From the IMG/VR virus record IMGVR_UViG_3300029705_000098: 20,000 bases of DNA. The stretch is one strand, 5' to 3'. Each line of letters opens with the position of its first letter. Position 1 is the stretch's first letter. Positions 307 through 20,000 of the stretch are shown piece after piece. This DNA is from an uncultured virus (IMG/VR IMGVR_UViG_3300029705_000098) (lineage: Duplodnaviria; Heunggongvirae; Uroviricota; Caudoviricetes). Under the pieces are notes generated by a model. It worked only from the letters and a program-made list of their open reading frames with translations. It was not told the origin of the DNA and ran no database searches. A program made the position numbers and the translations under genes.

Positions 307-339
307 AATTACCTTCCCCTTTGACATAAGCATACAAGT

Positions 340-370: not shown

Positions 371-394
371 CTAAAAATTTTATGAAAATTGTAC

Positions 395-1347: not shown

Positions 1348-1350
1348 AAG

Positions 1351-1635: not shown

Positions 1636-1739
1636 TGTTTGTCTCCTCCTTTATCATTTCGTATAAATATTGCCATAAATGCAAATATTCCACAAAGTAG
1701 TATAACTAAAACCAGCGTCCAAAACTCGTAATCTATCAT
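1632..1739 (-). CDS. Single-TM microprotein, 35 aa
   Basis: MIDYEFWTLVLVILLCGIFAFMAIFIRNDKGGDKQ*; ATGA overlaps at both ends (upstream stop 1736-1738, holin start 1633-1635). Below the ORF-track size limit. Confidence 0.75.
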   Translation of the reverse strand: MIDYEFWTLVLVILLCGIFAFMAIFIRNDKGGDKQ

Positions 1740-1984: not shown

Positions 1985-2014
1985 TGTGATTGCCCTCCTT
2001 ACCCATTTTTCTTT

Positions 2015-2045
2015 ATTATAACATTTTATACCACCAAGTGTGCAA
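2015..2045 (-). promoter_or_regulatory. Putative sigma-A promoter for the lysis cassette
   Basis: Perfect extended -10 TGTTATAAT (2023-2015); TTGCAC 19 nt upstream of the hexamer (suboptimal spacing); lies in the intergenic gap before the lysis genes. Confidence 0.65.
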
Positions 2046-2055
2046 ATTAAATGGC

Positions 2056-2080
2056 GTTTGTCTGAAAATTATCTTTCAGA
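2056..2080. promoter_or_regulatory. Inverted repeat / CodY-box-like site
   Basis: TCTGAAA-N6-TTTCAGA at 2061-2080; minus-strand AATTTTCAGACAAAC matches the CodY consensus AATTTTCWGAAAATT at 12/15. Confidence 0.35.
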
Positions 2081-3206
2081 TTACATACCTATACTCACCA
2101 CTCCAGTATAATTTTGAACCACTTGGTATAGTAGTAACAGAAATAAGGGTGTGATATGTTTTGCCGTAAGTTTGAACAGAGCCATACCCGTCTGTGCCCA
2201 CATTATGCGCGTAGGAACCCAAACCCGCGGGATGTAAAATCATATGTAACTCCGCACCATCATCATATTGTAAGATAATGTCAGGTTGCTTGTTGACCAT
2301 TAAATACGCGGATTCCAAATCTGCCTTAACAATTACTAATTCATCATTAGGAATAACAATATTAACAACATTCTGATTTACATACTGCATACCATAATAT
2401 TTGCTAAATCTAATATCGTCAAGCAACTCAATATATACTTCCACGTTCATAGTGTCAGTAAGGCTATAAACTCTCGTTTCCAAAATTGCAGGTGTTGCAC
2501 CCTCAAAAGTATTACCTGTGATTGTTTGAGCAAAATACAGCTTATTCTTTGCTACAAACCTTACAGTGCCCCAATAAATTCCATCAGAAGTTATCTCTTG
2601 GTTATTTACTAGTATTTTTAAATCCAACTCTTCTGCGGTAGGACAATCAACGCCCCCGACATTAACACTGTGGTTACCTCCTGTCCACAAGCCTCCACTC
2701 CAACCCGTTTTGTCAATCGAAAACGGTCCAATAATGTCGGTTGAGGCGGTCATATAATGTTTCTGCTCTACAAAACCAATATCATCTACCAAAAAACCAA
2801 GTCCAACATTAACTAATTGGAATAAATTATTAGGTCCGCGTCTATGAAACTCTCTAGCCAAGAATAATCCCTCGCCAAGATAAGCAAAGTGTGTATACTG
2901 ATTATTACTTACCAGTAGACAATTTTCTTTTCTGATTACAGCATCCTCATATCGGCAGGCATATGAAGTAACACCCGTAGAAGTTTTTTCATTGATATAC
3001 AGATATCCGTCATATTCGACATCAAAGAAACAAATATGATTTGTATAATCAGCAGGATATTCGGAGCCACCACAAGTGATAACTTGTTTTATTGGGGTTG
3101 ATTGTCCCCCGACAATAAGCGACTGCCCGATAACGACAATGCAACCGCCAACAGTTGTAACAAAGCCGATTAACTGATTAACTGTGAATGAAATTGTGTT
3201 GTCCAT
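2076..3206 (-). CDS. Apparent chimeric protein: holin-like hydrophobic N-terminus fused to a beta-rich tail-fibre/RBP-like C-terminal region
   Basis: 379-aa ORF in the track (GTG 3215); ATG 3206 is better placed after GAGGCGGTGA. N-terminus MDNTISFTVNQLIGFVTTVGGCIVVIGQ; the rest is beta-strand-like and lower in GC. Confidence 0.7.
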   Translation of the reverse strand: MDNTISFTVNQLIGFVTTVGGCIVVIGQSLIVGGQSTPIKQVITCGGSEYPADYTNHICFFDVEYDGYLYINEKTSTGVTSYACRYEDAVIRKENCLLVSNNQYTHFAYLGEGLFLAREFHRRGPNNLFQLVNVGLGFLVDDIGFVEQKHYMTASTDIIGPFSIDKTGWSGGLWTGGNHSVNVGGVDCPTAEELDLKILVNNQEITSDGIYWGTVRFVAKNKLYFAQTITGNTFEGATPAILETRVYSLTDTMNVEVYIELLDDIRFSKYYGMQYVNQNVVNIVIPNDELVIVKADLESAYLMVNKQPDIILQYDDGAELHMILHPAGLGSYAHNVGTDGYGSVQTYGKTYHTLISVTTIPSGSKLYWSGEYRYVI

Positions 3207-3207
3207 A

Positions 3208-5460
3208 TCACTCACCGCCTCGCTTCTTGCTTATCGGTTCATCGCCGATAGTCTTGATTTCTTCTTTCGGCTCGTCAATTTCTTTCGTCTTTTCGGTATC
3301 TTCGCTTTCCTCTGTCGGTTCTTCTTCGCTACCGCTATTGCTACTGCCCAAGAACACACCGCCAAGTGATTTAGCACCGCCACCGCCAGAATGATTACTT
3401 ACATACTGCTCAACACTCACCTTGTATTCCACTGCACAATCACCTGTATCTGCGTAGATATTGTTTGTGCCGTTGAGTGTGATGATAGGCTCTCCGTCAG
3501 GTAAAGCAATGACGTAAGATGTTCCGAGAGGATAAACAACCTGTGCTCCTGTTGTCGGTGTTGCACCTTGCGAATAGGCATCCATAGAACTTATCCACGG
3601 CTCGTTTATTGCCTCTCCGTTGTAAGACGCAATATAATTGTGTGTTACCTCAAACTGCCTATGTCCTGCCTTGTCCTGCGTGAAATGACCACCATAGTAA
3701 GTGCCACCGAGGTTGATTACTTCGGTATTGCCGTTGTATGGTTTAAAAAAAGCAGCTACATCTATCTCAAACTCTAAATTATAACGAGCCATTATCTTGT
3801 TATATGTTTCTTCTGTTTGTGGATAGAAAATCAAGCCTGTTAAGATAATGCTTGCGTCACCAATAGCGGTGTTCTTTTTGTTTGTTTGAGGTGCACCGTT
3901 CTGTACAACCCAGCGATACTCTCTTGTTGTTATTTGTTCTGTTCCGTCCCACTTGCTATCTACAAAGCCAAAACTAATGCCCGACAAATCAACCGATACG
4001 TCTTTGTCAATCAGAGATACGTTTATAACCGCATTGGGAACGCACGACCTCAAAACATAGTACGAACTTCTCACCGCTACCCAATCGCTAAATGGCTTTA
4101 CGTCCACAAGATTGTCTCCGCACTTCGCAAGGCTAATCTTACTCCAACCGCTTATCGGCAAAGGCGAGGCAGGTGTAGGTGTTCCGCTTTTCTGCACCGC
4201 ATTTACATCAACCTCTAATGACTTGATAGGCAGAGCCAAGTCTGTCTCAAAGTTCGCAACACCACCGCTTGCCGTATCATCAGGCAGGATATTATAGACA
4301 ATATCATCAACTTGTGCTTTGGTGTAGGTAGTGCTCTTATCGGCTTTATCGTCAAGAAGATCATCAACTTCGCTATTGGTATAAATGCCGTCAAGTCTCG
4401 CTCTGACCTTATTGCCGTTAGCGTCAAACTCGAACTTTACGTTTGTCGTGTCCTCAAAATCAACCGCACCGCTTGAAATGCCGTTGCCAAGAACTTCTGT
4501 TCCGTTGACCTTGATGTTACGCCAAGTGTCGTTATCTTCATCACCAGACGGAATATAAACCCATTCAGAGCCGTTGGAAATGAATGCATCACCGACCTTT
4601 GCGGTCTGTCCTGCGTATGTTCCGTCAGTAATAACCTTGTACGTCCAACCCTCATTATAATCACTTGCAACAGGCAGAACTTCAATCGTACCGCCTGTGC
4701 CTAATGTTCCCTTAAAGACCATAGGTGCAGGAAGATTGTCAATACGTCTGTCAAGGCGTGAGATTTCGCTTGTAAGGCTCTTGTTTCTGTTAAAGGTTAA
4801 ATCACCTGCAAGGGTTTCATTACCACTCCAGTCGAGTATACGAGCGTTAGAGCGTTCTCTTATACCCGTGCCGTTGCCGATAATCTCAATATAGTTGCCT
4901 CTTCCCGATGAAGACACCGTGCTATCGTCAGGCGTGTTGAACTCACCAAAGACGTGCTGACTTCTGTGGTTTGCAACTGTACTCCTACCCCCAGCAAACG
5001 AAGCATAACCGCTTGCTGTATTTCCGTCACCAACAGCCACCGACCGATTACCAACATCGCCCGGTTTTCGGTTAAGACTTAACGACCCTGTTCCTGTCGG
5101 GTTAGCCTTGTCCAGTTTATTTGCAAGAGCACTTGTTACATCAGTAGAGTCAGCCTTGCCGTCAACAACACCTGAAAGAGTATCAATAGCAGATTTCACG
5201 CTCTGTACATCATCAGCAAGTTTGATATTAAGCCACTTCTCACTATCAAACTCTTCGGGTTCGTCAATAGCGGTAATGCACCTATAAAGCAGACTTTCTT
5301 GGATTACATACTCGCCTACCGCATAAGTTCTCTCACTAGAGTATTTATTCGCAATAACCTTAACAGCCGTATCGCCGTCAATAACATAAACAGAACCAAA
5401 GTCCACATCAAGGTTCTCATTAGAACTTTCAAATGTAACATCTAATTCAACGTCAGCCAT
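3208..5460 (-). CDS. Mosaic tail fibre / receptor-binding protein
   Basis: CBM5/12-like YSSERTYAVGEYV...LYRC...W; YadA-head-like SVAVGDGNTASGYASFAGG; KADKSTTYTKAQVD fibre repeat; GTPTPASPLPISG motif; acidic C-terminal tail. Confidence 0.85.
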   Translation of the reverse strand: MADVELDVTFESSNENLDVDFGSVYVIDGDTAVKVIANKYSSERTYAVGEYVIQESLLYRCITAIDEPEEFDSEKWLNIKLADDVQSVKSAIDTLSGVVDGKADSTDVTSALANKLDKANPTGTGSLSLNRKPGDVGNRSVAVGDGNTASGYASFAGGRSTVANHRSQHVFGEFNTPDDSTVSSSGRGNYIEIIGNGTGIRERSNARILDWSGNETLAGDLTFNRNKSLTSEISRLDRRIDNLPAPMVFKGTLGTGGTIEVLPVASDYNEGWTYKVITDGTYAGQTAKVGDAFISNGSEWVYIPSGDEDNDTWRNIKVNGTEVLGNGISSGAVDFEDTTNVKFEFDANGNKVRARLDGIYTNSEVDDLLDDKADKSTTYTKAQVDDIVYNILPDDTASGGVANFETDLALPIKSLEVDVNAVQKSGTPTPASPLPISGWSKISLAKCGDNLVDVKPFSDWVAVRSSYYVLRSCVPNAVINVSLIDKDVSVDLSGISFGFVDSKWDGTEQITTREYRWVVQNGAPQTNKKNTAIGDASIILTGLIFYPQTEETYNKIMARYNLEFEIDVAAFFKPYNGNTEVINLGGTYYGGHFTQDKAGHRQFEVTHNYIASYNGEAINEPWISSMDAYSQGATPTTGAQVVYPLGTSYVIALPDGEPIITLNGTNNIYADTGDCAVEYKVSVEQYVSNHSGGGGAKSLGGVFLGSSNSGSEEEPTEESEDTEKTKEIDEPKEEIKTIGDEPISKKRGGE

Positions 5461-5791
5461 CTTGAGCCTCCTCTACTTGAATAACTCCGCCCTTGTAAAT
5501 TTCTAAAATATCTTCATCATTGCCCTCATTAGCAAGCGCAGTCCCATCGTCAAGTAAAATACGTAACTGAATGATAGCATCTCCCGCTTTAAGATTGAGC
5601 GTATCGTCTTGCGTAAGGGTTACAAGTATCTTTTTATTCTCATAATCAAATACGCAATCAGAGATAGTCTTGTCTACTTTAGGCTTTTTCTGTTGAGAGA
5701 TATAAAACCATACCTGAACTACATCGTGTAAATCAATATCATTTTTGATATTAGCACAGATTGTTGGAGTTGTTCCACGAATAATGCTCAT
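5453..5791 (-). CDS. BppU-like baseplate upper / fibre-attachment protein
   Basis: IIRGTTPT...VTLTQDDTLNL..G...IQLR pattern; immediately precedes the fibre gene. Confidence 0.75.
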   Translation of the reverse strand: MSIIRGTTPTICANIKNDIDLHDVVQVWFYISQQKKPKVDKTISDCVFDYENKKILVTLTQDDTLNLKAGDAIIQLRILLDDGTALANEGNDEDILEIYKGGVIQVEEAQDG

Positions 5792-5803
5792 ATTATTTCT
5801 CCT

Positions 5804-7375
5804 TTACTCGTATACCTCTTGAAGCGTGTATTCTACGGTCATCGCCTGCGAACCACTCTTCTGAATAGGGGTAGGCAAGTTGAACAGCGTAGTGTTTAAC
5901 ATCTTGTTTGCAAGGATAAATCTTTCAGTATACAGCGGATTGCTGTTACCGCCTACTCCGATTGCAAAGAACGAAGGCTTATATGTGTTACCAAAAGCCA
6001 TTGAGTAAGAGTTACTTGAGGCACCTGTAAGACTTGCGTTCTTACAACTATATCCTGTTGTTCCATTTACAACTATTCCGCTAACATTTCCCATTTCATT
6101 CCACTGGTTACCACAAGAAACTAATAATTCACCACCATAAGCAGGCTGTGTGTAGTAACCCTGTGCGGTGTTAAACGTCACTGTTGTCTGGTCAGATTGA
6201 TTTGTAAAGTTAATCTTTTTATATCCATTAACAGATAAACCAGCTTCAGGTGCAGTAGGAAAATAGAAGTAGTTTCCTGACTTAATGATTGCGTTAGTAT
6301 TTATTCTACGTCTCCAGCTATATCCCTCATTAAGGTTAACAACTCCTAAGCAGGCGATATTCGCTGTGTCGCTTATAACAGTACCGTGTGCAGTTTCAAC
6401 TTCGTTTTCACAATCAATAACGATATAGTTGATATGGTCCTTAGAATATGCTTGCGCTGTGCTAGTCATATTAGAGAACAGATATAACAACTTATTCTCA
6501 TAGTCAAAGTAGTAGCAAGGGTTTGTATAGAATGTGATATTGCTGGAAGTAATTTTGAATTTCCTAACAAAGTCGTTATTAACATTCCATCTCTCAAACA
6601 GGCCCGCTTTTCCAAAAGGAAATCTCTTAATGTAAATCATAATTTCATTTGTAGAAAAGATGTTGACAGTATCAGTATACTGTCCGTCACTTCCAATCTT
6701 AAATACAAAACCATGATAATCGTCATACTGGCCAAAGAGTGTTTCATCAGAAATCAAGCACTTTGCAGGCGTAGCAACCTGAGTAAAAGAACTCGCGTTG
6801 ATTATATCGAACGGCACAAAGTTTTGAAATGCGTATGTGTTAGAACCAAGTCCTGCGTCTCCTGTATCTGTATGTGTAAGAGACAGTGCAGAGATAGTTC
6901 CATTGCCGTGAGTAGTTCCCCACTCATACACGTACTTAACTTCATTTTCAGAAAATGCGTATGCCGCTGTTGTAGGATTTCCTCTGCGTAAGTCATCGTC
7001 ATGGCTGGAGTCTATTGTTGTTTGTCCAGCATGAGCAACAAGATGATTTACGTTATCTGCTTGAGGATAGTAATTGTCAGGGTCAAGCACTTGCTCACCA
7101 CCAACTTCAACAGTCGGGTGAGGATTCTGATAGAGAAGAACTCCGCCAAACCACTTCTTCCAAACACCGCTGTCGCCAAAAATCTTACTATAATCAACGG
7201 CTCCGCAGTAGTTATTTGCAAGAATGTCGCGCACCGCATTAGTGACGATGTTATCGCCCTCTATTACCTCATTCTTGCCGTTCTTACAGTTATGAAGTGT
7301 AATCTTAATATGTCCCTTGAACCTAGGCATCTTTACTTGTGAAAACCCTTCAATTTTTCTTGTGTCTTTTATCAT
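5804..7375 (-). CDS. Baseplate / receptor-binding structural protein
   Basis: KGHIKITLHN...DNIVTNA, GNGTISALSLT and terminal LPTPIQKSGSQAMTVEYTL motifs frame a beta-rich, possibly propeller-like insert; located in the tail-tip cluster. Confidence 0.7.
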   Translation of the reverse strand: MIKDTRKIEGFSQVKMPRFKGHIKITLHNCKNGKNEVIEGDNIVTNAVRDILANNYCGAVDYSKIFGDSGVWKKWFGGVLLYQNPHPTVEVGGEQVLDPDNYYPQADNVNHLVAHAGQTTIDSSHDDDLRRGNPTTAAYAFSENEVKYVYEWGTTHGNGTISALSLTHTDTGDAGLGSNTYAFQNFVPFDIINASSFTQVATPAKCLISDETLFGQYDDYHGFVFKIGSDGQYTDTVNIFSTNEIMIYIKRFPFGKAGLFERWNVNNDFVRKFKITSSNITFYTNPCYYFDYENKLLYLFSNMTSTAQAYSKDHINYIVIDCENEVETAHGTVISDTANIACLGVVNLNEGYSWRRRINTNAIIKSGNYFYFPTAPEAGLSVNGYKKINFTNQSDQTTVTFNTAQGYYTQPAYGGELLVSCGNQWNEMGNVSGIVVNGTTGYSCKNASLTGASSNSYSMAFGNTYKPSFFAIGVGGNSNPLYTERFILANKMLNTTLFNLPTPIQKSGSQAMTVEYTLQEVYE

Positions 7376-7388
7376 ACTTTACCTCCAC

Positions 7389-8063
7389 TTAACTTGCTAA
7401 CCAGCCGCGCAACTTTGAGCCATTGTCGATTGTGTCGTAAATATATGTTTCGTCAATCTCATCATACAAGCACCACTGATTATCGTTATATGCGGGTACG
7501 AATCTATGAACAAGCACATCGCTTTCATAAATTTCAAACCAAAATAAGCGCATATACACTGAATTTTGCGATGGACTCCACCCGTCAACCGCTTCTGATA
7601 AGTTTTCTATAAAAATACCCATAGGACCGTTTGCGTCTGCGATTGTTCCTGTTGTGGTCAAAGAGCGAGTGGTTGTTACATCACTCTCCCTATACCATGA
7701 GATTGCATTTCCAACTGCCTCGAAAATACAGGGTACATTTGTCCAATTTGATGATGTTGAACTTTCACCTGCAAGAATTGTATCGCCTTGGTTCCATGCG
7801 TTCTTTGTCATATAGGCAAGCTGTGTGCTGTCACCTATTGAGAAACCCATAGCGTTAGTTCTCCAGTTGCCTTGCTCATACCCAAAAATCGCACGCCACC
7901 CACCGCTTATAGCGTCTATTGCGGCTTTCATTTTTATTTTTGTAGTTGTCTTGTGTTTATATCCTGTGTTGAAACCAACTTTCCCAACATTATAGATATA
8001 ACTTTCATAAGACGGAGTTGGTGTCGGACTACTGCCGCCCTTTTTAACTTCATACCAAGCCAT
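7389..8063 (-). CDS. Tail-associated ConA/LamG-like lectin-domain protein
   Basis: FNTGY...IFG...MRLFWFEIYESDVLVHRFVPA...LYDEI pattern as in phage fibre lectin-like domains; short Ser/Pro/Thr linker near the N-terminus. Confidence 0.65.
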   Translation of the reverse strand: MAWYEVKKGGSSPTPTPSYESYIYNVGKVGFNTGYKHKTTTKIKMKAAIDAISGGWRAIFGYEQGNWRTNAMGFSIGDSTQLAYMTKNAWNQGDTILAGESSTSSNWTNVPCIFEAVGNAISWYRESDVTTTRSLTTTGTIADANGPMGIFIENLSEAVDGWSPSQNSVYMRLFWFEIYESDVLVHRFVPAYNDNQWCLYDEIDETYIYDTIDNGSKLRGWLAS

Positions 8064-8527
8064 TAACTTATCCTCACTTTCACGCTAATGTCACTTTGCT
8101 GGGCAGGAAAGGTAATAACTATCTGTCCCGTTGTTGTAACTATATCTGTAGGCGCAATTAAATCTGAAAATGCCCCGACGTTTTCAAACACCTGTATGGT
8201 GCTGTTTGTAGTAATAGCAGGGTTCTGTATCGTCAATGACGTACTACCCGCTAAAAGAGTGGCAACTAAGTCTGTCCAAGTAGAGCCAGAGATAGCAGAA
8301 ACAATTTCGTTAATTGCTCCTTCAACTGTTTTATTGTTTGTCTGCAAGTTAGCAAACGTCATACTTTCAACTGCGTGCGCACCAAGTTGGTTAGGAGTAG
8401 TTGTTAAAGAGGTATACCCTGTATCTCCTTGTTGTGTATAACTAGCAATCGCAATCAGGTCATTAGCGCCGTTTAATTGTACGGGGTGGTCCGTCTTTAA
8501 ATCTGAAAATTTAATTAAATCTGGCAT
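8063..8527 (-). CDS. Short tail-fibre-like structural protein
   Basis: IKFSDL start, LQTNNKTVEGAINEI fibre motif, small C-terminal beta domain. Confidence 0.65.
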   Translation of the reverse strand: MPDLIKFSDLKTDHPVQLNGANDLIAIASYTQQGDTGYTSLTTTPNQLGAHAVESMTFANLQTNNKTVEGAINEIVSAISGSTWTDLVATLLAGSTSLTIQNPAITTNSTIQVFENVGAFSDLIAPTDIVTTTGQIVITFPAQQSDISVKVRIS

Positions 8528-8538
8528 TTAGTCTCTCC

Positions 8539-10515
8539 TTACTCTGTTGTAAATCGGTCGCTATTTTCTGCTCCGATATAGTTTCCATCTTCTGTTGCAA
8601 AATCAAATCCTCCTCGTAAGAAAATTTGTGGTTGCAACGTGCCAGTTCCTTCTGCTAACGGTATGCCTTCAACACTATCAATATTATACAGTAAAAGTGT
8701 ATCAGCAACACTAATAAATGGAACACTAATAAGCGTAATTGTGCAATCATCAGACATATCAAGTATTCCCATATCTGCAATAGTGCCGATGAAGGCAGAA
8801 TCCTCAATTCTAATGAGACCACTGAACCCTGTAATGTCTGTAAGTTCTTGACCTATGAGACTTGCTTGTAATGTTCTTGCAGGTATAATAACTGTTCCGT
8901 TACGAATCGTCATATATACCTCAAACTCATATCGCATATTTGGCTCAAGCGCAACAACGGGATATGCGACAGTAATAATGTGCTTACCATTCTCTAGTTT
9001 TTCAGTAGCAACATACGGCTCTTCATTACTAGGAAGTCTGACTGAATTGAGCGTATAGAATATGTCTACTTCACATCGTCCATCTCTCAAATAAGTGTAA
9101 GTGTTCTCTGCTATACCCGTTAGTGATACAGGGTTTCCGTTAATGTCTGTGATAGTTGTCTCTTGCTCATTGTAGTATGCTTTTACAGGTACGCTAACGT
9201 CCTCAGTTGTAGTGTCAACAACATCTGGAACATCAACGTCAACAAGAATAGTAGCAACAAACAATGCGTCTGTTTTTGAGCTAGGATTGAATATACACTC
9301 ACCTATCTTGCTTGTCTGCAAATCTCCTATATTCGTCTGTCTAGGATTAGTGAATGATATGAACTGTAACTTGCTTCTCTCAATAGCCTGTGTGAGTATT
9401 CGGTTGCTCTCACTAGCAAGAACAGAACCGCCCTCTAAATACGGATTAAGCCCTTCACTATCAATCGTCATTCCCTGATGGAATCGCCACTCAATACTTG
9501 TAATGAGCGTATAGATAGTTCCGTTTCTTGTTATAAGTTCAAGTCTGTCACCACAATCGAATGACGGGTCACTCGGCATGTCCATATCGACAGGAGTATA
9601 TTCGTCAATCGACTGTAAATGATTAAACAGATTATCCGTTTTTGTCTGCTGTGCTTCCTCTGAACCATAGTCCCACGCAGGTGCATCTTCAATAATCATT
9701 ACAAGTCCCTGGTCGAGCACACTTGTGGTGTGCTTTGTGTACGTTCCAGCCAAACTTGAAATAGATATACCAACATACTTGCACTTATAGTCTGCGGGCA
9801 CTAAAGTAAACCAATCGCTCATAGTAAGTGACGCGTCTGCGGTGCTAGAAAATCCCTTTATTGCTAACTGACCATCTCTGCTCGCATATGCAAAACAGCC
9901 AAGTAACTGACATATCATCTTAACCACATCTCTATATGTGTGTATGCCTCTTTCTTCGCTTGCGTCTGCTTGATAAGTATAGTTAGGAAAATTCGTAAGA
10001 TAAAGTTCATCGAAATCAAGTTCCATTCCCGTATTTGCAGATACGGCTTGAAATAACTCCCACGGAAGTCCTGTTAAGAATGTTCCACCCAACTGCTTAT
10101 CAAGGAGCGACATATTATCATAGCAAGTCAGTGTAACTCTATCTGTTGGTCTTTCTGCGTCCGCTACTGTATAGATGCCAAGCGGCACCTCTTCAAAGAT
10201 AGGCACAGATGTTTCTCCAGAAGTATCTATGCCAGTTTGAATTTTGTATGTTAATTCAATGCTTGCGCCGTAAAAAGCGTATCTCTCCAAATCTGTGAGA
10301 ATGGATATTTTAAGTACGCTGGTGAACACACCACCAAACATTAACTCGTCATCGTCTATACACTGTTTACTGATAGACAAGGAATTAGACGGCAGATTAG
10401 AACCATCAATGGCCATTGTCGTGCCGTCTGCAAATGTTAGTGTGCCGTAAACAGTATTGTAGGGTCTGCTTGCGGCACGTATTGCTGTCTTGTACGCCTG
10501 ACTAGTGTTATACAT
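8539..10515 (-). CDS. Baseplate hub / Tal-like tail-tip protein
   Basis: MYNTSQAYKTAI...VPLGIYTV...TLTCYDNMSLLD...YRDVVKMICQLLGCFA...DPSFDCGD motifs; follows the tape measure gene with a TAATG overlap. Confidence 0.8.
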   Translation of the reverse strand: MYNTSQAYKTAIRAASRPYNTVYGTLTFADGTTMAIDGSNLPSNSLSISKQCIDDDELMFGGVFTSVLKISILTDLERYAFYGASIELTYKIQTGIDTSGETSVPIFEEVPLGIYTVADAERPTDRVTLTCYDNMSLLDKQLGGTFLTGLPWELFQAVSANTGMELDFDELYLTNFPNYTYQADASEERGIHTYRDVVKMICQLLGCFAYASRDGQLAIKGFSSTADASLTMSDWFTLVPADYKCKYVGISISSLAGTYTKHTTSVLDQGLVMIIEDAPAWDYGSEEAQQTKTDNLFNHLQSIDEYTPVDMDMPSDPSFDCGDRLELITRNGTIYTLITSIEWRFHQGMTIDSEGLNPYLEGGSVLASESNRILTQAIERSKLQFISFTNPRQTNIGDLQTSKIGECIFNPSSKTDALFVATILVDVDVPDVVDTTTEDVSVPVKAYYNEQETTITDINGNPVSLTGIAENTYTYLRDGRCEVDIFYTLNSVRLPSNEEPYVATEKLENGKHIITVAYPVVALEPNMRYEFEVYMTIRNGTVIIPARTLQASLIGQELTDITGFSGLIRIEDSAFIGTIADMGILDMSDDCTITLISVPFISVADTLLLYNIDSVEGIPLAEGTGTLQPQIFLRGGFDFATEDGNYIGAENSDRFTTE

Positions 10516-13500
10516 TAGAAACTTGTACCTCTAATCATTCTTTGTTGATTGACATATCTTGCGTTTGCTTTGCCAATCTCTTTGTCTCCGATAGTCAAGT
10601 TCTTGCTCTCGACTACCTGTATTAACTGCTGTAATAATTGTATCATTTCTGCGTTACCACTGGTAGCCAATACTTCTGCAACCGCTTGCTTAATTGTATC
10701 GAGCGGAGCTTCAATATTAGTGCCGTGCGACTGGTCACCCAGAACTGCCATAAACTCTCTGTTAGGAGGAATAACTGCGCCCTGAGCAAGATGCGGAACT
10801 CTTGCAAGAGTTACGTGTTTCAAATTAAACCCAACAGATTTTCCACCCCAGTCTGGAACCCAGTTAGGAATATCTATCTTGATTTTATTAAGAGCGTCTG
10901 CAATCCCGTTTACCATTTTTTCAAGCCCACCAATTAGGACATTTATAATTGATATTATAGAGTTTACGGGAGTTTCAATATAACCCTTCAGTCTGTTCCA
11001 AATCAATCTAATGTCCTCTGCAAGTGTGTTAAAGGTGTTAGTTGCCGCAACACGAATTGCCACCCACGTATCTGCTAAAAACTGTTTAAAGGCAGATACC
11101 TTTTTAGAGAACCAATTAAACTTTTCGTCAGTGATGCCAAGCAACGATGCAATAACACCTACACCAAGCCAAAAAGCACTCTTAATTGTTTCCCATCCAT
11201 CAACTATTCCTTGAACAAGCTCCGAAAAACTTATATTTTCAATTCCCTGATGAACATTATCGAGCCACCCAGATATATCTGTACCATAAATATCATCAAG
11301 TACACTTGCAACAACCTCTAACGGGTGATAATTAAGGTCAGCGAGAGTGTTCTTAATATCGTCAAACACCGCGGGCCAATCACCACTTAATATGTCTGCA
11401 ATAAGTTGTAAAGCATCTCCAACAAGAGTTAATGTAAAAGCGAGTTCGTGTAATAGTATGTCAAACCCAATTTCAACAAGGGTAACAATATGTTTCTCCA
11501 ATACATCAAGAACACCCGTTTCATCAAGAAACTCCCAAAAATCTTTAAGCGCATTTTTAAAGTTATCCCAGGCAAGTTTAAGGTCTTCTAATGCGGATAC
11601 CATCTTTTCATAACCCGGCAACTTTGACAGGTCAATGTCTTTGATAGCCTGCTTAACTCTCTTTAACCAGCCTTCAACATCAGTTCCAAATATCTTATCA
11701 AACACGCCTGCAAGTGCAATTAGAGGGTCAAAGGTAAGGTCCGCAAGCAAACTCTTAAAGTCCTGAAGCCCTGTCTTTAAGTCTCCGTTTAATATATCTG
11801 CCAACAGATTAAATAAGTTTGTTACGATGCTTAATGCACTTGTAAAAGCAGTATCGGCTAAATATAAGACAATCTCTTCAAGCGTTTTGACAATAGGAGA
11901 ATCCTTAAAATTATCAAACGCTGTTTTAAGTCTGTCGAAAGCCTCAATAACTCCGCTATCCTTAATTTTTTCTTTAATCTTATCAATAATATCAAAGATG
12001 CCCTTGAACTCCGATGGGTCAACATCTACGAGTTTAAACATATCGTTAGGGTCGGGAGTATACTTGTCTCCAAGTCCACCTCCTCCACCGCTACCAGTTC
12101 CGTTCGGGTCTTTGTCAACTCCAAGAACGTCCAAATCGTCAAATGCGGCAAGCCTGTCTGTCAACTTCTTTGCCTTATCTGCGGCACTTCCTGCACTACC
12201 ACCTACGTTGTCGAGGCTATCGGCATAGTCTGCGGCCTTAACTTTAACTGCCTGAAATACTTGCTTTTGCCCAAGCAGTACACCTAAAAAACGAGCAAAG
12301 GCGTTTCCTACTTGTGCAATCTTATCAATAAGTGCCTCAAGCCAGGGAGTTACAAACTGTAAGATAGGTGAGAACGCAGTTGCCCAAGCGTTTTTCAGAT
12401 ATAAGAGAGAAGAAAGCAATCTAGTAATACTCGCATTAACGTGGTTATTACCATCGTTAAATTGAGCCATATTCTTGATACCTTCTCCTATGTACTTACG
12501 TAATCTACGAACAAGAAAGAATAAACTCCTAAAGCCAAACACATACTTTGTAATACCTGTAATTAAATGCTTAAGATTGGTACGCATAGTTTTAGCCATA
12601 CTCTCAAAGGAGTTTCTAGCCCTGACAGCGTCCTTATGCCAATCGCTGAATCCTCTTTTAATTACTGATACCATAGGAGGTATTGATTTTAGTTGTTTTC
12701 CTGTTTCTGCGACTTTAGTATGCTCATTAGAAACATCTCTAAGATTTTGCTTATATCCTCGTATCTGAGAATTGATAAGTTCAATCATACGCAAAATATT
12801 TCCATAGGTACTATCTGCGCCTGCGGGCATACCCAAAGTCTCTATTGTCTTTTTTGCTTCCTTTAACTGATTATATCTTCGTATCAACTCTGCGATGTTA
12901 TCAGTTGCAGGGTCTGACTGCATCCTATCCCAGAGTGTATTTGTATCTTCCGTAATAGAGCGAATGATAGTGTCTAACGCTGTTAATTGGCCCTCACACT
13001 CCTGGGAACTTTCCGCAAGTGCGTTAAGCGGGTTTTTATCTTCTCCAGAAATATCTTTAACGCTCTGTGAAAAAGATTGAGCGGAGTCTTTTGCTCCGTC
13101 AAGACTCTCTTTTACAGTAGCAAGGTTATCTGCTTCCTCTTTTGTAGACTGTGCGAGTTCTTGATTTGCATTTACTGAAAGTTCTACGTCACTTAAGGTT
13201 TGAGATATAATATCTTTTTGTTGAGCATAATTAGATAAGACTTCTTGTGAAGAAGCCTGTGCTCTCTCATAATCGGCCTGTAACTTTGCCTCTTCTTCCT
13301 CAATAAGAGCAATATAGTCCCTATTCTCTTTGATTAACCTATTTTGTTCTGCTTGAGCGGATAAGTTTCTCTGTGCCCCAGCACTCTCGGGATTTCTTTC
13401 GTATTTTTCGTTCCAAGTGCGCTGTAATTTAGATAAACCTCGCTCCTCATCTGCAATCTTAGTAAGTGTTGCTTGCTTTTCAGCACTGAGTTCCTTAAGA

Positions 13501-13721
13501 TTATCTGCTATTGCGGATACATTTGTAGAGGCTGCGGATAATTCATCAGAAAGTCCTTTTGCATTTTTCTCTGCCGCTTCAAGCCTGGATTCAAGGGAAG
13601 TAAATCCTTTACCTTCAATTTTCTTGGAGGCATCTTTAAGTAATTTTTCAAGTTCTTTAATGTCATTTTGGGCCTGTGTAAGATTAAACCCCAAAGACAG
13701 TTCGGCATCAGTATTTGGCAT
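10515..13721 (-). CDS. Tail tape measure protein
   Basis: 1068 aa, helical/coiled coil; LAAFDDLDVL...GSGGGGG, W-containing repeats, C-terminal IPNWVP...VPHLAQGAVIPPNREFMAVLGDQ..GTNIEAPL. Confidence 0.95.
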   Translation of the reverse strand: MPNTDAELSLGFNLTQAQNDIKELEKLLKDASKKIEGKGFTSLESRLEAAEKNAKGLSDELSAASTNVSAIADNLKELSAEKQATLTKIADEERGLSKLQRTWNEKYERNPESAGAQRNLSAQAEQNRLIKENRDYIALIEEEEAKLQADYERAQASSQEVLSNYAQQKDIISQTLSDVELSVNANQELAQSTKEEADNLATVKESLDGAKDSAQSFSQSVKDISGEDKNPLNALAESSQECEGQLTALDTIIRSITEDTNTLWDRMQSDPATDNIAELIRRYNQLKEAKKTIETLGMPAGADSTYGNILRMIELINSQIRGYKQNLRDVSNEHTKVAETGKQLKSIPPMVSVIKRGFSDWHKDAVRARNSFESMAKTMRTNLKHLITGITKYVFGFRSLFFLVRRLRKYIGEGIKNMAQFNDGNNHVNASITRLLSSLLYLKNAWATAFSPILQFVTPWLEALIDKIAQVGNAFARFLGVLLGQKQVFQAVKVKAADYADSLDNVGGSAGSAADKAKKLTDRLAAFDDLDVLGVDKDPNGTGSGGGGGLGDKYTPDPNDMFKLVDVDPSEFKGIFDIIDKIKEKIKDSGVIEAFDRLKTAFDNFKDSPIVKTLEEIVLYLADTAFTSALSIVTNLFNLLADILNGDLKTGLQDFKSLLADLTFDPLIALAGVFDKIFGTDVEGWLKRVKQAIKDIDLSKLPGYEKMVSALEDLKLAWDNFKNALKDFWEFLDETGVLDVLEKHIVTLVEIGFDILLHELAFTLTLVGDALQLIADILSGDWPAVFDDIKNTLADLNYHPLEVVASVLDDIYGTDISGWLDNVHQGIENISFSELVQGIVDGWETIKSAFWLGVGVIASLLGITDEKFNWFSKKVSAFKQFLADTWVAIRVAATNTFNTLAEDIRLIWNRLKGYIETPVNSIISIINVLIGGLEKMVNGIADALNKIKIDIPNWVPDWGGKSVGFNLKHVTLARVPHLAQGAVIPPNREFMAVLGDQSHGTNIEAPLDTIKQAVAEVLATSGNAEMIQLLQQLIQVVESKNLTIGDKEIGKANARYVNQQRMIRGTSF
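11229..11945 (-). repeat. Diverged internal tandem duplication in the tape measure gene
   Basis: Copy 1 (~11631-11945): AFDNFK...LLADILNGD...LADL...PL...IFGTDVEGWL. Copy 2 (~11229-11597): AWDNFK...LIADILSGD...LADL...PL...IYGTDISGWL. Confidence 0.8.
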
Positions 13722-14833: not shown

Positions 14834-14888
14834 ATTGAGTATGCTCCTGTGCGCCTAAAGTTAAACGCACAGGAGTTTATAACTCAAT
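14834..14888 (-). promoter_or_regulatory. Long intergenic stem-loop after the major tail gene (no U-tract)
   Basis: Inner arms CTCCTGTGCG/CGCACAGGAG (14844-14875), extendable by G-U pairs on the minus strand; outer arms ATTGAGT/ACTCAAT. Confidence 0.75.
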
Positions 14889-17573: not shown

Positions 17574-18914
17574 TCAGCCGAGAGAGATAATCCTTGCAAT
17601 CGGGATAGCCTTAAGGCTGATGTAATCCTTTGTTCCCTGTTCGTTACTATTAACGAGTTCCCAGTTGACACCGAGCTCCAACTCAGCGTTTGTAGGAGAG
17701 AGTTTCGCCATAGATGCCTTTGTGAACGAAATGCCGTAAGGAGCAAAGCACTTTCTCTGACGAGAATAGAGTGTATCCTGACCACCGTTTGTCTTAGGGT
17801 CTCTGCTCATCTCGTAAGGAACCTTTGCACCGCAGTTGGTATACTCGATAGCACCATCGCCGAATACGTATGTGATGTACTTTGTTACACCAACAGGAGC
17901 AGTTGTAGTATCAGGTGTGATTGTACCAGCAACAGATGTTGTGGAAGTCACAGGCTCACCATGGCCATACTGACCAGACTTCTCTGTAAGTGTGAGGACT
18001 GCACCATCACGAGATACAGAATAGTGAGCGTTAGAACCAAGAGCGGATGCAAGGCCAGTAGCAACTGCTGTAGGTGTTTCAGTAGTAGAAACTGTGAACT
18101 CTGCACCATCTACAACAAACTTCTCACCAGTAGCAACCGTTCCACCGATTGTAACTGTGTAAACACCAGCGGCAGAGTATGTGTCGATTGTAGGCATACT
18201 ATCGTCAACCATTACAAGTCTACCGTTGAGAGTACCAATGGAAAGGTCTCTCTGAAGACCATTAGCGTCGTTATACTTGAGATAAACGAGCAACTTAAGG
18301 TTCTCAAGGTTTGTAGCAACGAAAGAGTGCATAATTGCCATTGAGAACTTGCCCTTGTGGTCACCACACGCTCTCTGAATTGCAGTATTGAGCGTTGTGC
18401 CGTCCATATAACCTAAAACGTTCTCTGTGTTTGTTGCGGCAGAAACATCATAAGTATGGCTCTGAACGAACTTAGCACCCTCACTGTCAGACATATTAAA
18501 TACACCTGTGAGAATGTGTACGAGTGTATCCTGGTCAATCTCGTCCCAATACTGTGAAATCTGTTGAGCGACGTTCTCCATAAAGTCAACACCACCAGTA
18601 ATGTCATAAGAGAAGTCCTTTTCTGTCCACGCCTTTGCACGACCTACAACAACTCTCGAATGAGAGAAGGTCTTTGTGCCTGTAGATGTAATGTCTGTTT
18701 CACCGTCGTAGTTGTCAGGTGTACCGTTGATAAGGCCCTTGAGAGGGGTTGTGATGTAGTTACCACCGACCTGGTCTGCCATCGCACCAGCAATATCCTG
18801 TCTCTGAACGATTGCTCTGGATTTGAGAAGTTCATTCAGCTTAGTATTGGGAAGCCTGTCCATATACTGCTGGAAAACTTCACTGTTAAAAAGTTTTGCG
18901 TCAAAAAGTCCCAT
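17574..18914 (-). CDS. Major capsid protein with internal ~100-aa insertion
   Basis: FDAKLFNSEVF..Y, GRAKAWTEKDFS, MHS.VATNLENL.LL, NGRLVMVDDSMP, VPYEMSRDPKTNGGQDTLYSR, SPTNAELE...NW motifs. Confidence 0.95.
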   Translation of the reverse strand: MGLFDAKLFNSEVFQQYMDRLPNTKLNELLKSRAIVQRQDIAGAMADQVGGNYITTPLKGLINGTPDNYDGETDITSTGTKTFSHSRVVVGRAKAWTEKDFSYDITGGVDFMENVAQQISQYWDEIDQDTLVHILTGVFNMSDSEGAKFVQSHTYDVSAATNTENVLGYMDGTTLNTAIQRACGDHKGKFSMAIMHSFVATNLENLKLLVYLKYNDANGLQRDLSIGTLNGRLVMVDDSMPTIDTYSAAGVYTVTIGGTVATGEKFVVDGAEFTVSTTETPTAVATGLASALGSNAHYSVSRDGAVLTLTEKSGQYGHGEPVTSTTSVAGTITPDTTTAPVGVTKYITYVFGDGAIEYTNCGAKVPYEMSRDPKTNGGQDTLYSRQRKCFAPYGISFTKASMAKLSPTNAELELGVNWELVNSNEQGTKDYISLKAIPIARIISLG

Positions 18915-18936: not shown

Positions 18937-19593
18937 TTAACGGGCTTGGTCATTAGCCGCTTTCATCAACTCTGTAAGAGTAGGTTTCTTTTGTGGAGTA
19001 GCGCCCGGTGTACTACTTACAAACTGCGGCTTTGTCTCTGTGGGTGTGTTTGCTGTGGGTTCTGTTTTAGTAACAAATGCGTCTGCATTTACTTCTGCGT
19101 ATGCTTTAGCAAAATCATCTGCTCCTATGATAGTTCCCGCTTTCATCTTTAACTTCTCGTCCAAGAGAGACCTTACAAAATCACGCTTTGCGGCCTGGCT
19201 GGAAAACTCCTTGCCGTTAGCATATTCCTTTACTGCAAACTCGTACTCTTGCTCTGCCAACTGTTGCTTGTACGCTTCCATATCGGCATTATACTTTGTC
19301 TGCAACGTATCAAAGTTTGTTTGAAGTTCTGCCAACTTTGATGTGTCTGTGCCTGCCTCCCTTAACTTTGCCTGCAAGTCTACAAGGTCCTTATCACGCT
19401 GTGCGATAGTTCCGTTAAGTTGCTCGATGGAAGTGTCTTTAGACCCAATATCATCGTCATACTTTGACTTACTAACGTACTTGCCTTCAGAAAGGTCTGT
19501 AAACTTTGCTCCGCCGTCTTTAGCGATTGCCTCAAACTGCTCAAAAGTTAAAGTGCCGTTCTCTGCTTTGTCAAAAATCTCTTTGATGTTCAC
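18937..19593 (-). CDS. Capsid scaffolding protein (GP20-like)
   Basis: GTG start with RBS AGGAGGA; YVSKSKYDD, then long coiled coil and Pro/Thr-rich C-terminus; immediately upstream of the major capsid gene. Confidence 0.9.
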   Translation of the reverse strand: MNIKEIFDKAENGTLTFEQFEAIAKDGGAKFTDLSEGKYVSKSKYDDDIGSKDTSIEQLNGTIAQRDKDLVDLQAKLREAGTDTSKLAELQTNFDTLQTKYNADMEAYKQQLAEQEYEFAVKEYANGKEFSSQAAKRDFVRSLLDEKLKMKAGTIIGADDFAKAYAEVNADAFVTKTEPTANTPTETKPQFVSSTPGATPQKKPTLTELMKAANDQAR

Positions 19594-19622
19594 GAAAAAT
19601 TCCTCCTAAAACAATCTTTTAT

Positions 19623-19717
19623 ATCCGCTTTATTTATAATTTCGCAGTCGCGGTCTGCGTTGATTGTACCCTTGTTTTAAGGTCTAGGGCGAGACTATAT
19701 AATAAGGTGTTAGACCT
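19623..19717 (-). ncRNA. Structured 5' leader of the scaffold/capsid operon with two candidate H-type pseudoknots
   Basis: PK1: GTCT/AGAC stem (19682-19695), loop GCCCT pairs with AGGGT (19668-19672). PK2: CGCAG/CTGCG stem (19643-19659), loop CCGC pairs with GCGG (19625-19628). Both have A-rich linkers. Confidence 0.6.
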
Positions 19718-19737
19718 GTATTATCGTTGGAGTTCTA

Positions 19738-19766
19738 AAATTGAAAATGATAATCATTTTCAATTT
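19738..19766. promoter_or_regulatory. Perfect 14-1-14 palindrome containing a Fur box
   Basis: AAATTGAAAATGAT-A-ATCATTTTCAATTT; the core GAAAATGATAATCATTTTC (19743-19761) matches GATAATGATAATCATTATC at 17/19. Confidence 0.8.
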
Positions 19767-19775
19767 CATACCTCA

Positions 19776-19804
19776 ATATTATAATATATATTGGTAAATG
19801 TCAA
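19776..19804 (-). promoter_or_regulatory. Sigma-A promoter for the scaffold-capsid-tail operon
   Basis: TTGACA (19804-19799), then 17 nt, then TAATAT (19781-19776); an overlapping TATAAT lies at 15-nt spacing. Confidence 0.8.
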
Positions 19805-19806: not shown

Positions 19807-20000
19807 TTACTTATAATCTTTCACGCGTATTCTTTCAAGTTTTGCTGGGACACCACATTTTTGACTGAATTGTTTATAACGTGTTGTTAATTTTCCTACG
19901 CTGTTTCTGGCCTGCATCATCATATTTTTATCGTTCAGTGCTTTTCCATATAAGTATTTTTCCTTAGCCTTTCTGATTTCACGTTCATACCTGCGTTGAA
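19807..20000 (-). CDS. Phage minor capsid protein (Phage_min_cap2-like), 3' end only
   Basis: Translated by hand: QRRYEREIRKAKEKYLYGKALNDKNMMMQARNSVGKLTTRYKQFSQKCGVPAKLERIRVKDYK*; QR..ER.IR..K...Y..F motif; located before the scaffold gene. Confidence 0.85.
   Translation of the reverse strand, partial: QRRYEREIRKAKEKYLYGKALNDKNMMMQARNSVGKLTTRYKQFSQKCGVPAKLERIRVKDYK

Follow-up and report, generated by a model that had tools for sequence, protein, structure and literature searches.

The window, the whole 20,000-nt stretch of phage DNA analysed here, carries a perfect 29-bp palindrome between a predicted host-type promoter and the first gene of a scaffold/capsid/tail operon. Judged by its sequence, the palindrome is on balance probably a look-alike of a host Fur-family metalloregulator operator, most likely that of Zur, placed at the sigma-A promoter of this operon. 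The phage may in this way tie capsid production to a metal sensor of its host, with zinc more likely than iron. The locus is laid out as follows.

19807 to 20000, minus strand: 3' end of a minor head protein gene (phrog_581, E 3.3e-07), stop codon at 19809-19807, 5' end off the window
19799 to 19804, minus strand: -35 hexamer TTGACA, with TTGAC[AGT] in the same place in nine relatives
19776 to 19781, minus strand: -10 hexamer TAATAT after a 17-nt spacer
19778 to 19783, minus strand: alternative -10 TATAAT with a 15-nt spacer
19736 to 19768, minus strand: predicted 15-bp 5'-terminal RNA stem-loop (the palindrome plus a U-A and a G.U pair, 3-nt loop), from fold prediction
19738 to 19766, no strand: perfect 29-bp palindrome AAATTGAAAATGAT-W-ATCATTTTCAATTT (14-1-14), a Fur-family operator look-alike by sequence and by comparison with host operators, best match Zur
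19742 to 19762, no strand: 21-bp core of the palindrome, identical in contig L323
19729 to 19732, minus strand: CUCC box, paired with GGAG of the Shine-Dalgarno in the predicted MFE and centroid folds, weakly here and over a longer stretch in relatives
19699 to 19725, minus strand: P0 hairpin GAUAAUA-C-AGGU...ACCU-UAUUAU, directly 5' of GP20-a, varying in relatives with its pairs kept
19599 to 19699, minus strand: GP20-a cis-regulatory RNA motif (Rfam RF02991; E 1.1e-09, 57.5 bits where the gathering threshold is 47.2)
19602 to 19607, minus strand: Shine-Dalgarno AGGAGG, 8 nt 5' of a GTG start
18937 to 19593, minus strand: head scaffolding protein gene of the GP20 family (phrog_194, E 3.5e-18), first gene 3' of the promoter
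17574 to 18914, minus strand: major head protein gene (phrog_247, E 3e-83), next after the scaffold gene and in the same direction

All genes of the window are on the minus strand, and the predicted sigma-A-type promoter points into the scaffold gene. The original prediction had placed TTGACA-N17-TAATAT here, and this proved correct (19804-19776, minus strand). Of 78 distinct relatives, at least 49 have the promoter in this position, with spacers that vary; the hexamers are conserved whereas the spacer sequence is not, and the -35 is in place in L016, L157, L159, L158, L161, L032, L018, L014 and L162. To call the promoter a consensus one is generous, as the -10 agrees with the consensus at 4/6 positions. 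Promoter-like sites are found in the window in the number expected by chance (53 observed, 52.2 expected), and hence the promoter call rests on conservation in relatives and not on the hexamer score. Contigs from three public metatranscriptome runs, which come from relatives 85-97% alike, cover only parts of 18950-19667; none reaches the palindrome, and they therefore give neither a transcription start nor proof of expression.

The palindrome starts 9 nt past the -10 and its 21-bp core 13 nt past it, so that the palindrome spans about +3 to +31 relative to the predicted start, and an imperfect extension runs out to 19730-19774. The classical Fur box of E. coli and B. subtilis comprises 19 bp with two overlapping 7-1-7 repeats. 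We scored the palindrome against a 19-bp Fur consensus and the 7-1-7 form, both written as short motifs. Rescoring upheld both the perfect palindrome past the -10 (19766-19738) and the match counts previously given for it: the core agrees with the Fur consensus at 17/19 positions and consists of two overlapping 7-1-7 elements that score 13/14 and 12/14. Random 29-bp palindromes of the same composition reach at least 17/19 at a rate of 1.6e-4, a single-site statistic that is weakened by the choice of this site from a very large scan for Fur likeness. The runner-up score in 47,330 nt of phage is 14/19. Furthermore, a loose gapped palindrome scan of IMG/VR gave 80 unrelated viral palindromes that share the outer arms and include no relatives of the window, and not one of them reaches 15/19.

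The phage encodes a DNA polymerase, a primase, helicases, a clamp loader and a 7-deazaguanine cluster, and no integrase or CI-type repressor was found in the 47 kb seen; it is probably a virulent siphovirus. Because it has a replication module of its own and lacks an integrase in that 47 kb, the suggestion that the locus belongs to GTA-like particles or a prophage is unsupported. DNA of the window is present in public metagenome runs from the gut and faeces of ruminants and other animals. A DNA search of a phage collection returned only short matches within capsid genes, at 3-8% coverage, to phages of Clostridium, Clostridioides and Fusobacterium.

Small winged-helix proteins are also encoded by the phage, and a palindrome that stands beside the promoter in several lineages with co-varying arms could serve as the operator of a phage-encoded late-gene regulator. 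We regard this as very unlikely. The palindrome is single-copy in the window and the other 27 kb of phage seen, with about a third of the genome outside that, and L161 likewise has one copy of its variant in a complete genome of 73 kb. No further site within three mismatches of the 21-mer occurs in the window, where 0 are expected. A phage operator repeated elsewhere, which the original prediction had weighed against its own proposal, thus receives no backing from the search for copies, and a phage regulator would leave the specific likeness to host zur operators unexplained.

That likeness was found in the probable host order, taken to be that of one MAG carrying a 67%-identical relative of the phage; this relative is without the palindrome. 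Allowing up to two mismatches, 86 of 401 genomes from this order contain the 19-mer core, against about 20 for a reversed-pattern control (hand count of the table). The whole 29-mer, with up to three mismatches, occurs in 12 of the 401 and its reversed pattern in 0. The 29-mer pattern was built from the phage and one host site, and the argument is the concentration of its matches at zur promoters rather than their number. Ten of the 12 mark the promoter of a Fur-family gene that has ZnuA after it: nine are directly 5' of the Fur-family gene, with ZnuA next in eight of these, and the tenth (L272, the same as L285) likewise has a Fur-family gene and ZnuA. The window element differs from these sites, in ten genomes, at no more than three of 28 positions, and the site in G220 is itself a perfect 29-bp palindrome with the same base as the phage at 25/29 positions (hand count). 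All nine Fur-family proteins beside the host look-alike sites have two CxxC motifs, and all eight ZnuA neighbours have a His/acidic central loop. From this gene context we infer that the host sites are Zur boxes. Our data thus support the placing of the palindrome, by sequence, in the family of Fur-family operators of the probable host order. A search for DNA shared between the phage and five box-carrying genomes found none, a result that carries no weight.

A site-blind sample of 61 genomes gave 30 ZnuA loci, whose promoters show 7-1-7 palindromes of the form TGnnAAT-N-ATTnnCA with nn specific to the host. The best match of the window core in this sample is 18/21, compared with 14/21 in coding controls, and that of the L159 core is 19/21. 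The L158 variant, TGAGAAT-T-GTTCTCA, agrees at 14/15 positions with a perfect host box, TGAGAAT-T-ATTCTCA, a score of at least 14/15 being reached against the sample by 6 of 400 random palindromes. The centre of the L161 stem matches host boxes at 11/15, which equals the null median.

The element had been described as a Fur box, with iron as the metal. The first part stands as far as Fur-family likeness is concerned, given the host-order sites, but the best matches are Zur operators, and the data on gene neighbours do not favour iron. We consider it unlikely that the palindrome is an iron-responsive Fur operator from which the structural genes are released under iron limitation, even though it has the 17/19 match and the two 7-1-7 repeats of the classical box and perfect classical boxes do occur in the host order, one of them in G157 at the 5' end of a gene of the Fur family. 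As the boxes of Fur, Zur and PerR overlap, one regulator may recognise the site of another. None of 33 scanned host sites (21 + 12, a small sample) lies beside a recognisable iron-uptake Pfam family; their neighbours are Fur-family genes, ZnuA, desulfoferrodoxin, rubredoxin or unrelated genes, and it is at Fur-family plus ZnuA operons that the extended palindrome has its close matches. Zur regulons are small compared with those of Fur, and genomes with the window-type box mostly have one core-pattern match each, which fits a small Zur regulon better. In G003, the one named host relative, which has one Fur-family gene, 7-1-7 sites number 49 where the control has 26; we inspected 11 of them, 10 of which are inside ORFs, and G003 therefore provides no usable regulon. 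There is a precedent in print for Fur, a C. difficile prophage operon with a predicted Fur site at its promoter and altered expression in a fur mutant (PMC6311696).

The expectation that the block would be conserved holds for some relatives and fails for others. A Fur-like block scoring 15-17/19 is present in the window, L016, L157, L159 and L032, but is absent from the nearest sister lineages L018, L014 and L162, though these keep the promoter and the leader, and from the leaders of the other relatives. The bases on either side of the central base are invariant in all five close relatives, though they would be unpairable in the 3-nt RNA loop. The window and L158 differ in length by 6 bp, which is the offset of the overlapping 7-1-7 repeats. 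L161 retains a 9-bp stem with compensatory changes in the outer arms and a centre that is not box-like. L158 and L161 were left out of the hairpin pair counts, as MAFFT placed their gaps at the ends, and both were treated by hand.

The same core also appears outside this clade. In L323, an IMG/VR contig, TTGACA-N15-TATAAT is followed after 6 nt by the identical 21-bp core, 5' of the contig's own scaffold gene (PF06810, phrog_194), and BLASTP finds no significant similarity between its scaffold protein and that of the window (E 0.29).

The element is predicted to be transcribed in full, because it starts 9 nt past the -10 and does not overlap it. The resulting stem-loop would begin 0-3 nt past the predicted transcription start, and in the 180-nt leader the stem is part of both the MFE and the centroid folds (z -3.18). 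Stems at this place are common in the family: 37 of 48 related leaders with a promoter-like site have a stem of at least 6 bp starting within 12 nt of the -10, compared with 39.5% of shuffles (1895/4800) and 28.9% of coding segments (123/426). These stems share their place, but their sequences are unrelated to one another. Folding favours the sense over the antisense strand in 43/48 leaders, and with composition controlled (z -1.93 sense versus -1.32 antisense) the sense value is lower in 35/48 leaders (p 0.0014) and 25/35 clusters (p 0.009). Within the window clade, pairing is kept in 73/75 cells in the sense and 67/75 in the antisense direction, which leans the same way but is not discriminating there.

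Since the stems are family-wide and sense-specific, a role in RNA only is a serious rival. The palindrome would then be the DNA image of a 5'-terminal mRNA stem-loop, which could guard against 5'-end-dependent decay or help the leader with its CU-rich box, P0 and GP20-a to fold, and its likeness to a metalloregulator site would be incidental. A 5' stem is to be expected anyway in this leader family, so the presence of the palindrome needs no operator, and L161 keeps the outer arms by compensatory change while losing the box. Emory in 1992 reportedly described mRNA stabilisation by a 5'-terminal stem-loop, and Hambraeus in 2002 is said to have dealt with the aprE leader of B. subtilis; both are cited in a review (PMC3997798). 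Stabilising stem-loops of this kind are documented, by the titles cited there, for ompA and papA of E. coli and for the aprE leader. Like them, the window stem is predicted to be stable and to lie only a few bases in from the 5' end, here a predicted one, of a presumably highly expressed mRNA; unlike them, its sequence is constrained far beyond the needs of pairing.

We hold an RNA-only role to be a real possibility, though not the likely one. The original prediction had named an RNA hairpin as the alternative that would undo it; a 5' hairpin can indeed form, and this tells in part against the prediction. A role in RNA only would leave unexplained a sequence family that is nearly confined to host zur-znuA promoters, an L158 variant that matches the box of another host, the identical 21-mer in the unrelated scaffold leader of L323, and a Fur score so rare among random palindromes; moreover, the sister lineages manage without the stem.

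One-sided G.U changes are found in the palindrome arms of L016, L032 and L159. We dropped them as proof of an RNA element, because the same variants occur naturally in host half-sites (GTTTTCA, TGAGAAT) and do not discriminate.

The stem has 15 bp and is followed by UUUUAG, and the leaders of the distant relatives L164, L182 and L229 have GC-rich, U-tailed hairpins, which would suit a weak intrinsic terminator or attenuator, whether for ending the packaging/minor-head transcript that arrives from upstream or for damping the one that starts here. Such a function appears most improbable: the palindrome is not among the 11 terminator-like sites of the window, G-C pairs make up 2 of its 15 stem pairs (3 with the G.U pair), the U run is within the stem, and relatives show no consistent U tract 3' of it.

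GP20-a and other candidate structured RNAs have been reported upstream of GP20 scaffold genes (PMC10690425). The window leader has the GP20-a motif in common with these, and the motif scores above gathering in 7/11 relatives' loci. The palindrome is not part of it, being outside the model, whose 5' end comes 39 nt further downstream; GP20-a occurs without the palindrome in L005-type relatives, and the palindrome without GP20-a in the L323 leader. The original prediction did not mention this leader RNA. Anti-Shine-Dalgarno pairing is significant for the family (mean z -1.02); the window has z -0.06, and the pairing is therefore left out of the main claim.

A host Zur-type operator is thus the reading that we favour. 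As the operator-like sequence is also transcribed into the leader stem, the element is probably dual-use, a DNA operator overlying an RNA stem. In the mechanism that we infer, for which binding by Zur, its repressing effect, the kind of metal, the start of transcription and the host are all presumed, metal-loaded Zur dimers on the two overlapping 7-1-7 repeats would block RNA polymerase at or just past the start, and the internal late promoter would be throttled while free active repressor is present. It would be released when zinc drops, or once phage replication has yielded more genomes than there are repressor molecules, and the transcribed palindrome would form the 5'-terminal stem-loop typical of the leaders of this scaffold-gene family. 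Gating of virion assembly as a whole, as once proposed, is unsupported because the minor-head gene, at the least, is upstream of the promoter, where the window ends short of any terminase or portal gene. It is not obvious what a virulent phage would gain by repressing its own capsid promoter through a regulator that is normally active.

A stronger version seems doubtful to us, namely that gut Clostridia phages have at least twice independently, in the window clade and in L323, set a host Zur operator between a host-type promoter and a scaffold gene as a capsid switch. Such a switch would answer zinc starvation or act as a replication-coupled timer. As a timer, hundreds of new phage genomes would titrate the few Zur dimers and release the late promoter, and the same titration would de-repress host zinc import, to the benefit of the phage's zinc-dependent enzymes.

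Host metalloregulators are known to act on phage-borne genes, as Fur does on stx1 and DtxR on the diphtheria toxin gene. These two cases, the C. difficile prophage and the window have in common a host metal-sensor operator on phage DNA, a predicted one in the last two. The former concern cargo genes or a lysogen's prophage operon, whereas the window has a scaffold/capsid/tail operon, a virulent-looking phage and a putative Zur site. Compared with the classical Fur box, the extended element has its closest natural relatives at zinc and not iron loci. The autoregulated Zur operators at zur-znuA(BC) in Firmicutes resemble it as AT-rich 7-1-7 palindromes beside a sigma-A promoter; it differs from them in being on a phage, 5' of structural genes and past the -10, with Zur binding predicted. 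As read from the sequence, the -10 overlaps the operator in three host loci, which is the classic repressor geometry, whereas in the phage the element lies 5-13 nt past the -10. A literature search, with most subscription journals outside its reach, found no Zur or Fur operator at a phage scaffold or capsid promoter. What the search turned up on Fur boxes in phages was mostly about Stx phages, and on Zur boxes in phages it turned up nothing comparable.

The timing of late genes in tailed phages is usually credited to factors that the phage itself encodes. If a phage of virulent type really had the operator of a host metalloregulator at its scaffold/capsid promoter, this would represent a different late-gene logic. 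The output of virions would then depend on the zinc status of the host, which is relevant in the gut where zinc is contested, or alternatively on the number of phage genome copies, by titration of the repressor. The locus also advises caution in the reading of motifs: what scored 17/19 as a 'Fur box' has its closest counterparts among zinc operators, and an RNA stem is encoded in those very bases. The type of operator may furthermore be a clue to the host, as only about 3% of the searched host-order genomes carry the window-type operator.

The window is a tailed-phage module for virion structure and lysis with all genes on the minus strand, and 213 non-coding bases separate the stop codon of the minor head gene from the GTG of the scaffold gene.

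Features of the window (coordinates, strand, description)
stop codon 19809-19807, minus: minor head protein gene, its 5' end off the window
TTGACA 19804-19799 and TAATAT 19781-19776, minus: predicted promoter TTGACA-N17-TAATAT, from reading the sequence
19766-19738, minus: perfect palindrome AAATTGAAAATGAT-T-ATCATTTTCAATTT, 9 nt after TAATAT, from reading the sequence
after the palindrome and before P0, minus: CUCC box
between the CUCC box and GP20-a, minus: small hairpin P0
19699-19599, minus: GP20-a, Rfam cis-regulatory RNA motif (57.5 bits, gathering score 47.2)
listed after GP20-a, 8 nt before the scaffold start codon, minus: AGGAGG
18937-19593, minus: scaffold gene, GTG start at 19593
17574-18914, minus: major head gene
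listed between major head and tape measure, minus: adaptor and tail-completion genes
10515-13721, minus: tape measure gene
listed between tape measure and holin, minus: distal tail genes
1351-1635, minus: holin gene

The observation behind the original prediction, a palindrome with the likeness of a Fur box placed after a promoter-like site, stands, correct in both position and score (17/19 against the Fur consensus; 13/14 and 12/14 against the 7-1-7 inverted-repeat form). The promoter hexamers by themselves are not significant, with 53 promoter-like sites in the window against 52.2 expected. The palindrome has no second copy in the window or in a further 27 kb of the same phage (record G001, 100% identical over window 1-10615), and the runner-up Fur score in these 47,330 nt is 14. 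None of 80 unrelated viral palindromes sharing the outer arms reaches a score of 15, and random palindromes of the same composition reach 17 or more at a frequency of 1.6e-4; as the site was picked from a very large scan for Fur likeness, these chance figures were not relied on alone. Elsewhere, the brief interval that separates two tail-region genes (14817/14888) contains an inverted repeat of 15 nt at 14844-14875, its arms 87% complementary and spaced by 2 nt.

The scaffold protein, and then an eight-protein scaffold alignment, served to collect relatives: 13 viral, 2 genomic and 10 metagenomic loci, the best 80 of 138 further viral loci, and one locus found through DNA (L032), giving 85 loci with 78 distinct upstream regions. 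A promoter-like site of at least 10/12 precedes the scaffold gene in 49 of the 78, and in the close clade the hexamers are retained while the spacers diverge, as is usual for a functional promoter. In 7 of the 11 loci tested, GP20-a exceeded its gathering threshold. Conservation of the palindrome block is mixed: it is present in the window, L016, L157, L159 and L032 (Fur scores 17, 16, 17, 16 and 15, respectively) and in a shorter form, AAATTGAGAA-TTG-TTCTCAATTT, in L158 and L002; in L161 and L003 the arms differ and the centre is non-palindromic. The nearest sister lineages, L018, L014 and L162, lack the block (about 30 nt missing) and keep the promoter, P0 and GP20-a, and other lineages (L005 type) lack the promoter altogether. 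In L016, a metagenomic relative with 88% identity, the scaffold gene (L016:539-1192) has an in-frame stop after codon 105, which may be an assembly error or mark a pseudogene.

Host operators were sought in 401 genomes of the order to which the sole named host relative belongs. This is a Candidatus Fimenecus MAG with a relative of 67% identity, and it alone gives us the presumed host order. The 19-mer core (up to 2 mismatches) occurs in 86 of the 401 genomes against about 20 for the reversed control, and the extended 29-mer (up to 3 mismatches) in 12 against none. The ORF caller put 11 of the 21 core sites examined inside ORFs and 10 between genes. Fur-family genes account for four of the sites: ZnuA comes next at two and desulfoferrodoxin at a third, and the fourth is at the 5' end of the gene itself, a site that the caller had scored as inside. 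Nine of the 12 29-mer sites lie directly upstream of a Fur-family gene, with ZnuA next in eight of these nine, and a tenth, L272, coincides with L285, again a Fur-family gene and ZnuA. The site in genome G220 is a perfect 14-1-14 palindrome differing from that of the phage at 4 of 29 positions, and at three host loci a TTGACA-N17-TATAAT/TAAAAT promoter, as read in the sequence, overlaps the first bases of the element. At these look-alike loci a His/acidic loop is present in 8/8 ZnuA proteins and two CxxC motifs in 9/9 regulators; a His-rich loop marks the zinc-specific members. The Fur-box interpretation appears right in kind, as a likeness to Fur-family operators, but probably wrong in metal, the closest host sites being those at Fur-family and ZnuA genes; a site for iron-responsive Fur itself, with which the consensus match would agree, is improbable. 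Classical-type boxes in the host genomes also precede a Fur-family gene with desulfoferrodoxin and a rubredoxin gene (L261 in G303, L250 in G263); these are probably PerR-type sites, and they indicate the extent of overlap among the three Fur-family box types in this order.

Because the 29-mer and core sites had been found by phage likeness, ZnuA loci were also sampled independently of DNA sites (38 of 61 genomes have ZnuA; 30 loci kept), with Fur-family neighbours identified by an HMM built from six Pfam-confirmed proteins. A Fur-family gene lies directly upstream of ZnuA in 12 of the 30, and these promoters carry 7-1-7 palindromes TGnnAAT-N-ATTnnCA with host-specific nn (half-site pairs TGAGAAT/ATTCTCA, TGAAAAT/GTTTTCA, TGAAAAC/GTTTTCA, TGCGAAT/ATTCGCA, TGCAAAT/ATTTGCA and TGATAAT/ATTATCA). 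The best match of the window core in the 30 ZnuA promoter regions is 18/21, against 14/21 in coding controls from the same loci, and that of the L159 core is 19/21. The L158 15-mer matches a perfect host box at 14/15, a level reached by 6 of 400 random palindromes, and the L161 centre attains only 11/15 in ZnuA promoters, the null median.

An exact IMG/VR scan with the host-type degenerate 21-mer returned 18 loci, two of them from the window clade. In another phage, L323, TTGACA-N15-TATAAT is followed after 6 nt by the identical core TGAAAATGATTATCATTTTCA, and some 105 nt beyond the core comes a scaffold gene (PF06810, phrog_194) whose protein has no significant pairwise similarity to that of the window (E 0.29); GP20-a is absent from the L323 leader at E 0.01 or better. 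Across such a distance an RNA stem gives no reason for 21 identical bases, whereas reading by a conserved host protein would give one. A rough estimate puts at a few per cent the probability of finding one of the 16 other matches in a scaffold leader. On balance we lean, by a little, towards the palindrome being a functional Fur-family operator of Zur type that would also form a 5' stem once transcribed.

The palindrome could instead be an RNA stem whose operator likeness is incidental. Stems were surveyed in 48 leaders with the promoter 120-260 nt upstream of the start, namely the relatives at 10/12 or better plus L157 and L159 (9/12), minus those outside this length range. A stem of at least 6 bp begins within 12 nt of the -10 in 37 of 48, against 39.5% of shuffles and 28.9% of coding segments, with a mean energy of -10.0 against -6.1 kcal/mol in the comparison; the sequences of these 5' stems are unrelated among leaders. 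Strand specificity persists after composition control (z -1.93 sense, -1.32 antisense, p 0.0014; 25/35 sequence clusters). The window stem reaches 15 bp on the sense strand and appears in both the MFE and centroid leader folds (z -3.18), and paired cells in five close relatives number 73/75 sense against 67/75 antisense. These data establish a stem-loop beside the promoter as a real, general feature of these leaders, and the palindrome would serve as one. One-sided changes that read as RNA wobble pairs (GTTTTCA in L016 and L032, TGAGAAT in L159) are also natural host half-site variants, so they no longer discriminate between the models. Given the identical bases in L323, with its unrelated scaffold and no GP20-a, a stem without operator function is a possible but rather doubtful reading.

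The rest of the phage bears on what a Zur-type operator would do. G001 carries a replication module (L029/L030, G001:1-27400) with family-A DNA polymerase (PolA), primase, DnaB-type and SNF2 helicases and a clamp loader, together with FolE/QueD/QueE/QueC, a 7-deazaguanine pathway implying modification of the DNA with 7-deazaguanine; zinc or Fe-S centres are needed by several of these enzymes. All genes seen run in one direction, and in the 47 kb seen (the record is rated 52% complete) an integrase, a CI-type repressor and a Fur-like gene are all absent. The suggestion of a prophage or GTA-like particles is therefore not borne out. That the palindrome is an operator for a phage-encoded regulator is very unlikely. 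With such virulent-type gene content, one has to explain why an active host repressor would hold down the capsid promoter. Repression by a host Zur-type regulator might be released on zinc limitation; alternatively, a scarce repressor might be titrated as phage genomes multiply. Iron limitation had been proposed to license virion assembly as a whole, which is not supported, since at least the minor-head gene lies upstream of the promoter (the window ends within that gene); the element would rather tune scaffold, capsid and tail dosage.

Phage-borne genes under host metalloregulators are familiar from stx1, under Fur control, and the diphtheria toxin gene, under DtxR control. Our search of the literature, of incomplete coverage, found no published report of a phage scaffold or capsid promoter that carries a Fur-family operator. 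PMC6311696 describes a C. difficile prophage operon with a predicted Fur site, PMC3997798 cites work on 5' stem-loop stabilisers of mRNA, and PMC10690425 describes GP20-a with six further candidate RNAs upstream of GP20 genes.

In the window clade P0 (GAUAAUA-C-AGGU...ACCU-UAUUAU) is an extra hairpin 5' of GP20-a (both together at 19599-19725, minus strand; alignment A5), and its inner stem changes in sequence among relatives with pairs kept (AGGU/ACCU, AGGC/GCCU, GGC/GCC, GGU/ACC), which suggests a functional leader RNA longer than the Rfam model. In many relatives the 5' stem is followed by a CU-rich box able to pair with the Shine-Dalgarno region (e.g. UUUUCUCCUUGG with AAGGAGA). Its pairing in the L156-L235 leaders (first 75 nt after the -10) has a mean z of -1.02, with 14/48 below -2 (Wilcoxon p 1.5e-07), but in the window it is weak (z -0.06); such pairing may be a hint that translation is controlled through sequestration of the Shine-Dalgarno sequence. 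The leaders of L164 (the same as L004), L182 and L229 have a G+C-rich, U-tailed, terminator-like hairpin between promoter and GP20-a, and there the leader may work partly by attenuation. That the window palindrome, a stem just after the -10, is itself a terminator or attenuator seems to us the least probable reading.

Four other IMG/VR loci from the scan, L312, L315, L320 and L322, in mostly unannotated gene context, have the host-type element paired or beside partial copies; in L315, for instance, two copies are 9 nt apart. The viral contig L320 also carries a type-P5 twister ribozyme (RF02684; 186-242, minus strand; 66.2 bits, gathering score 37.6), and a few hundred bases away lie two Zur-type 21-mers, themselves 79 nt apart.
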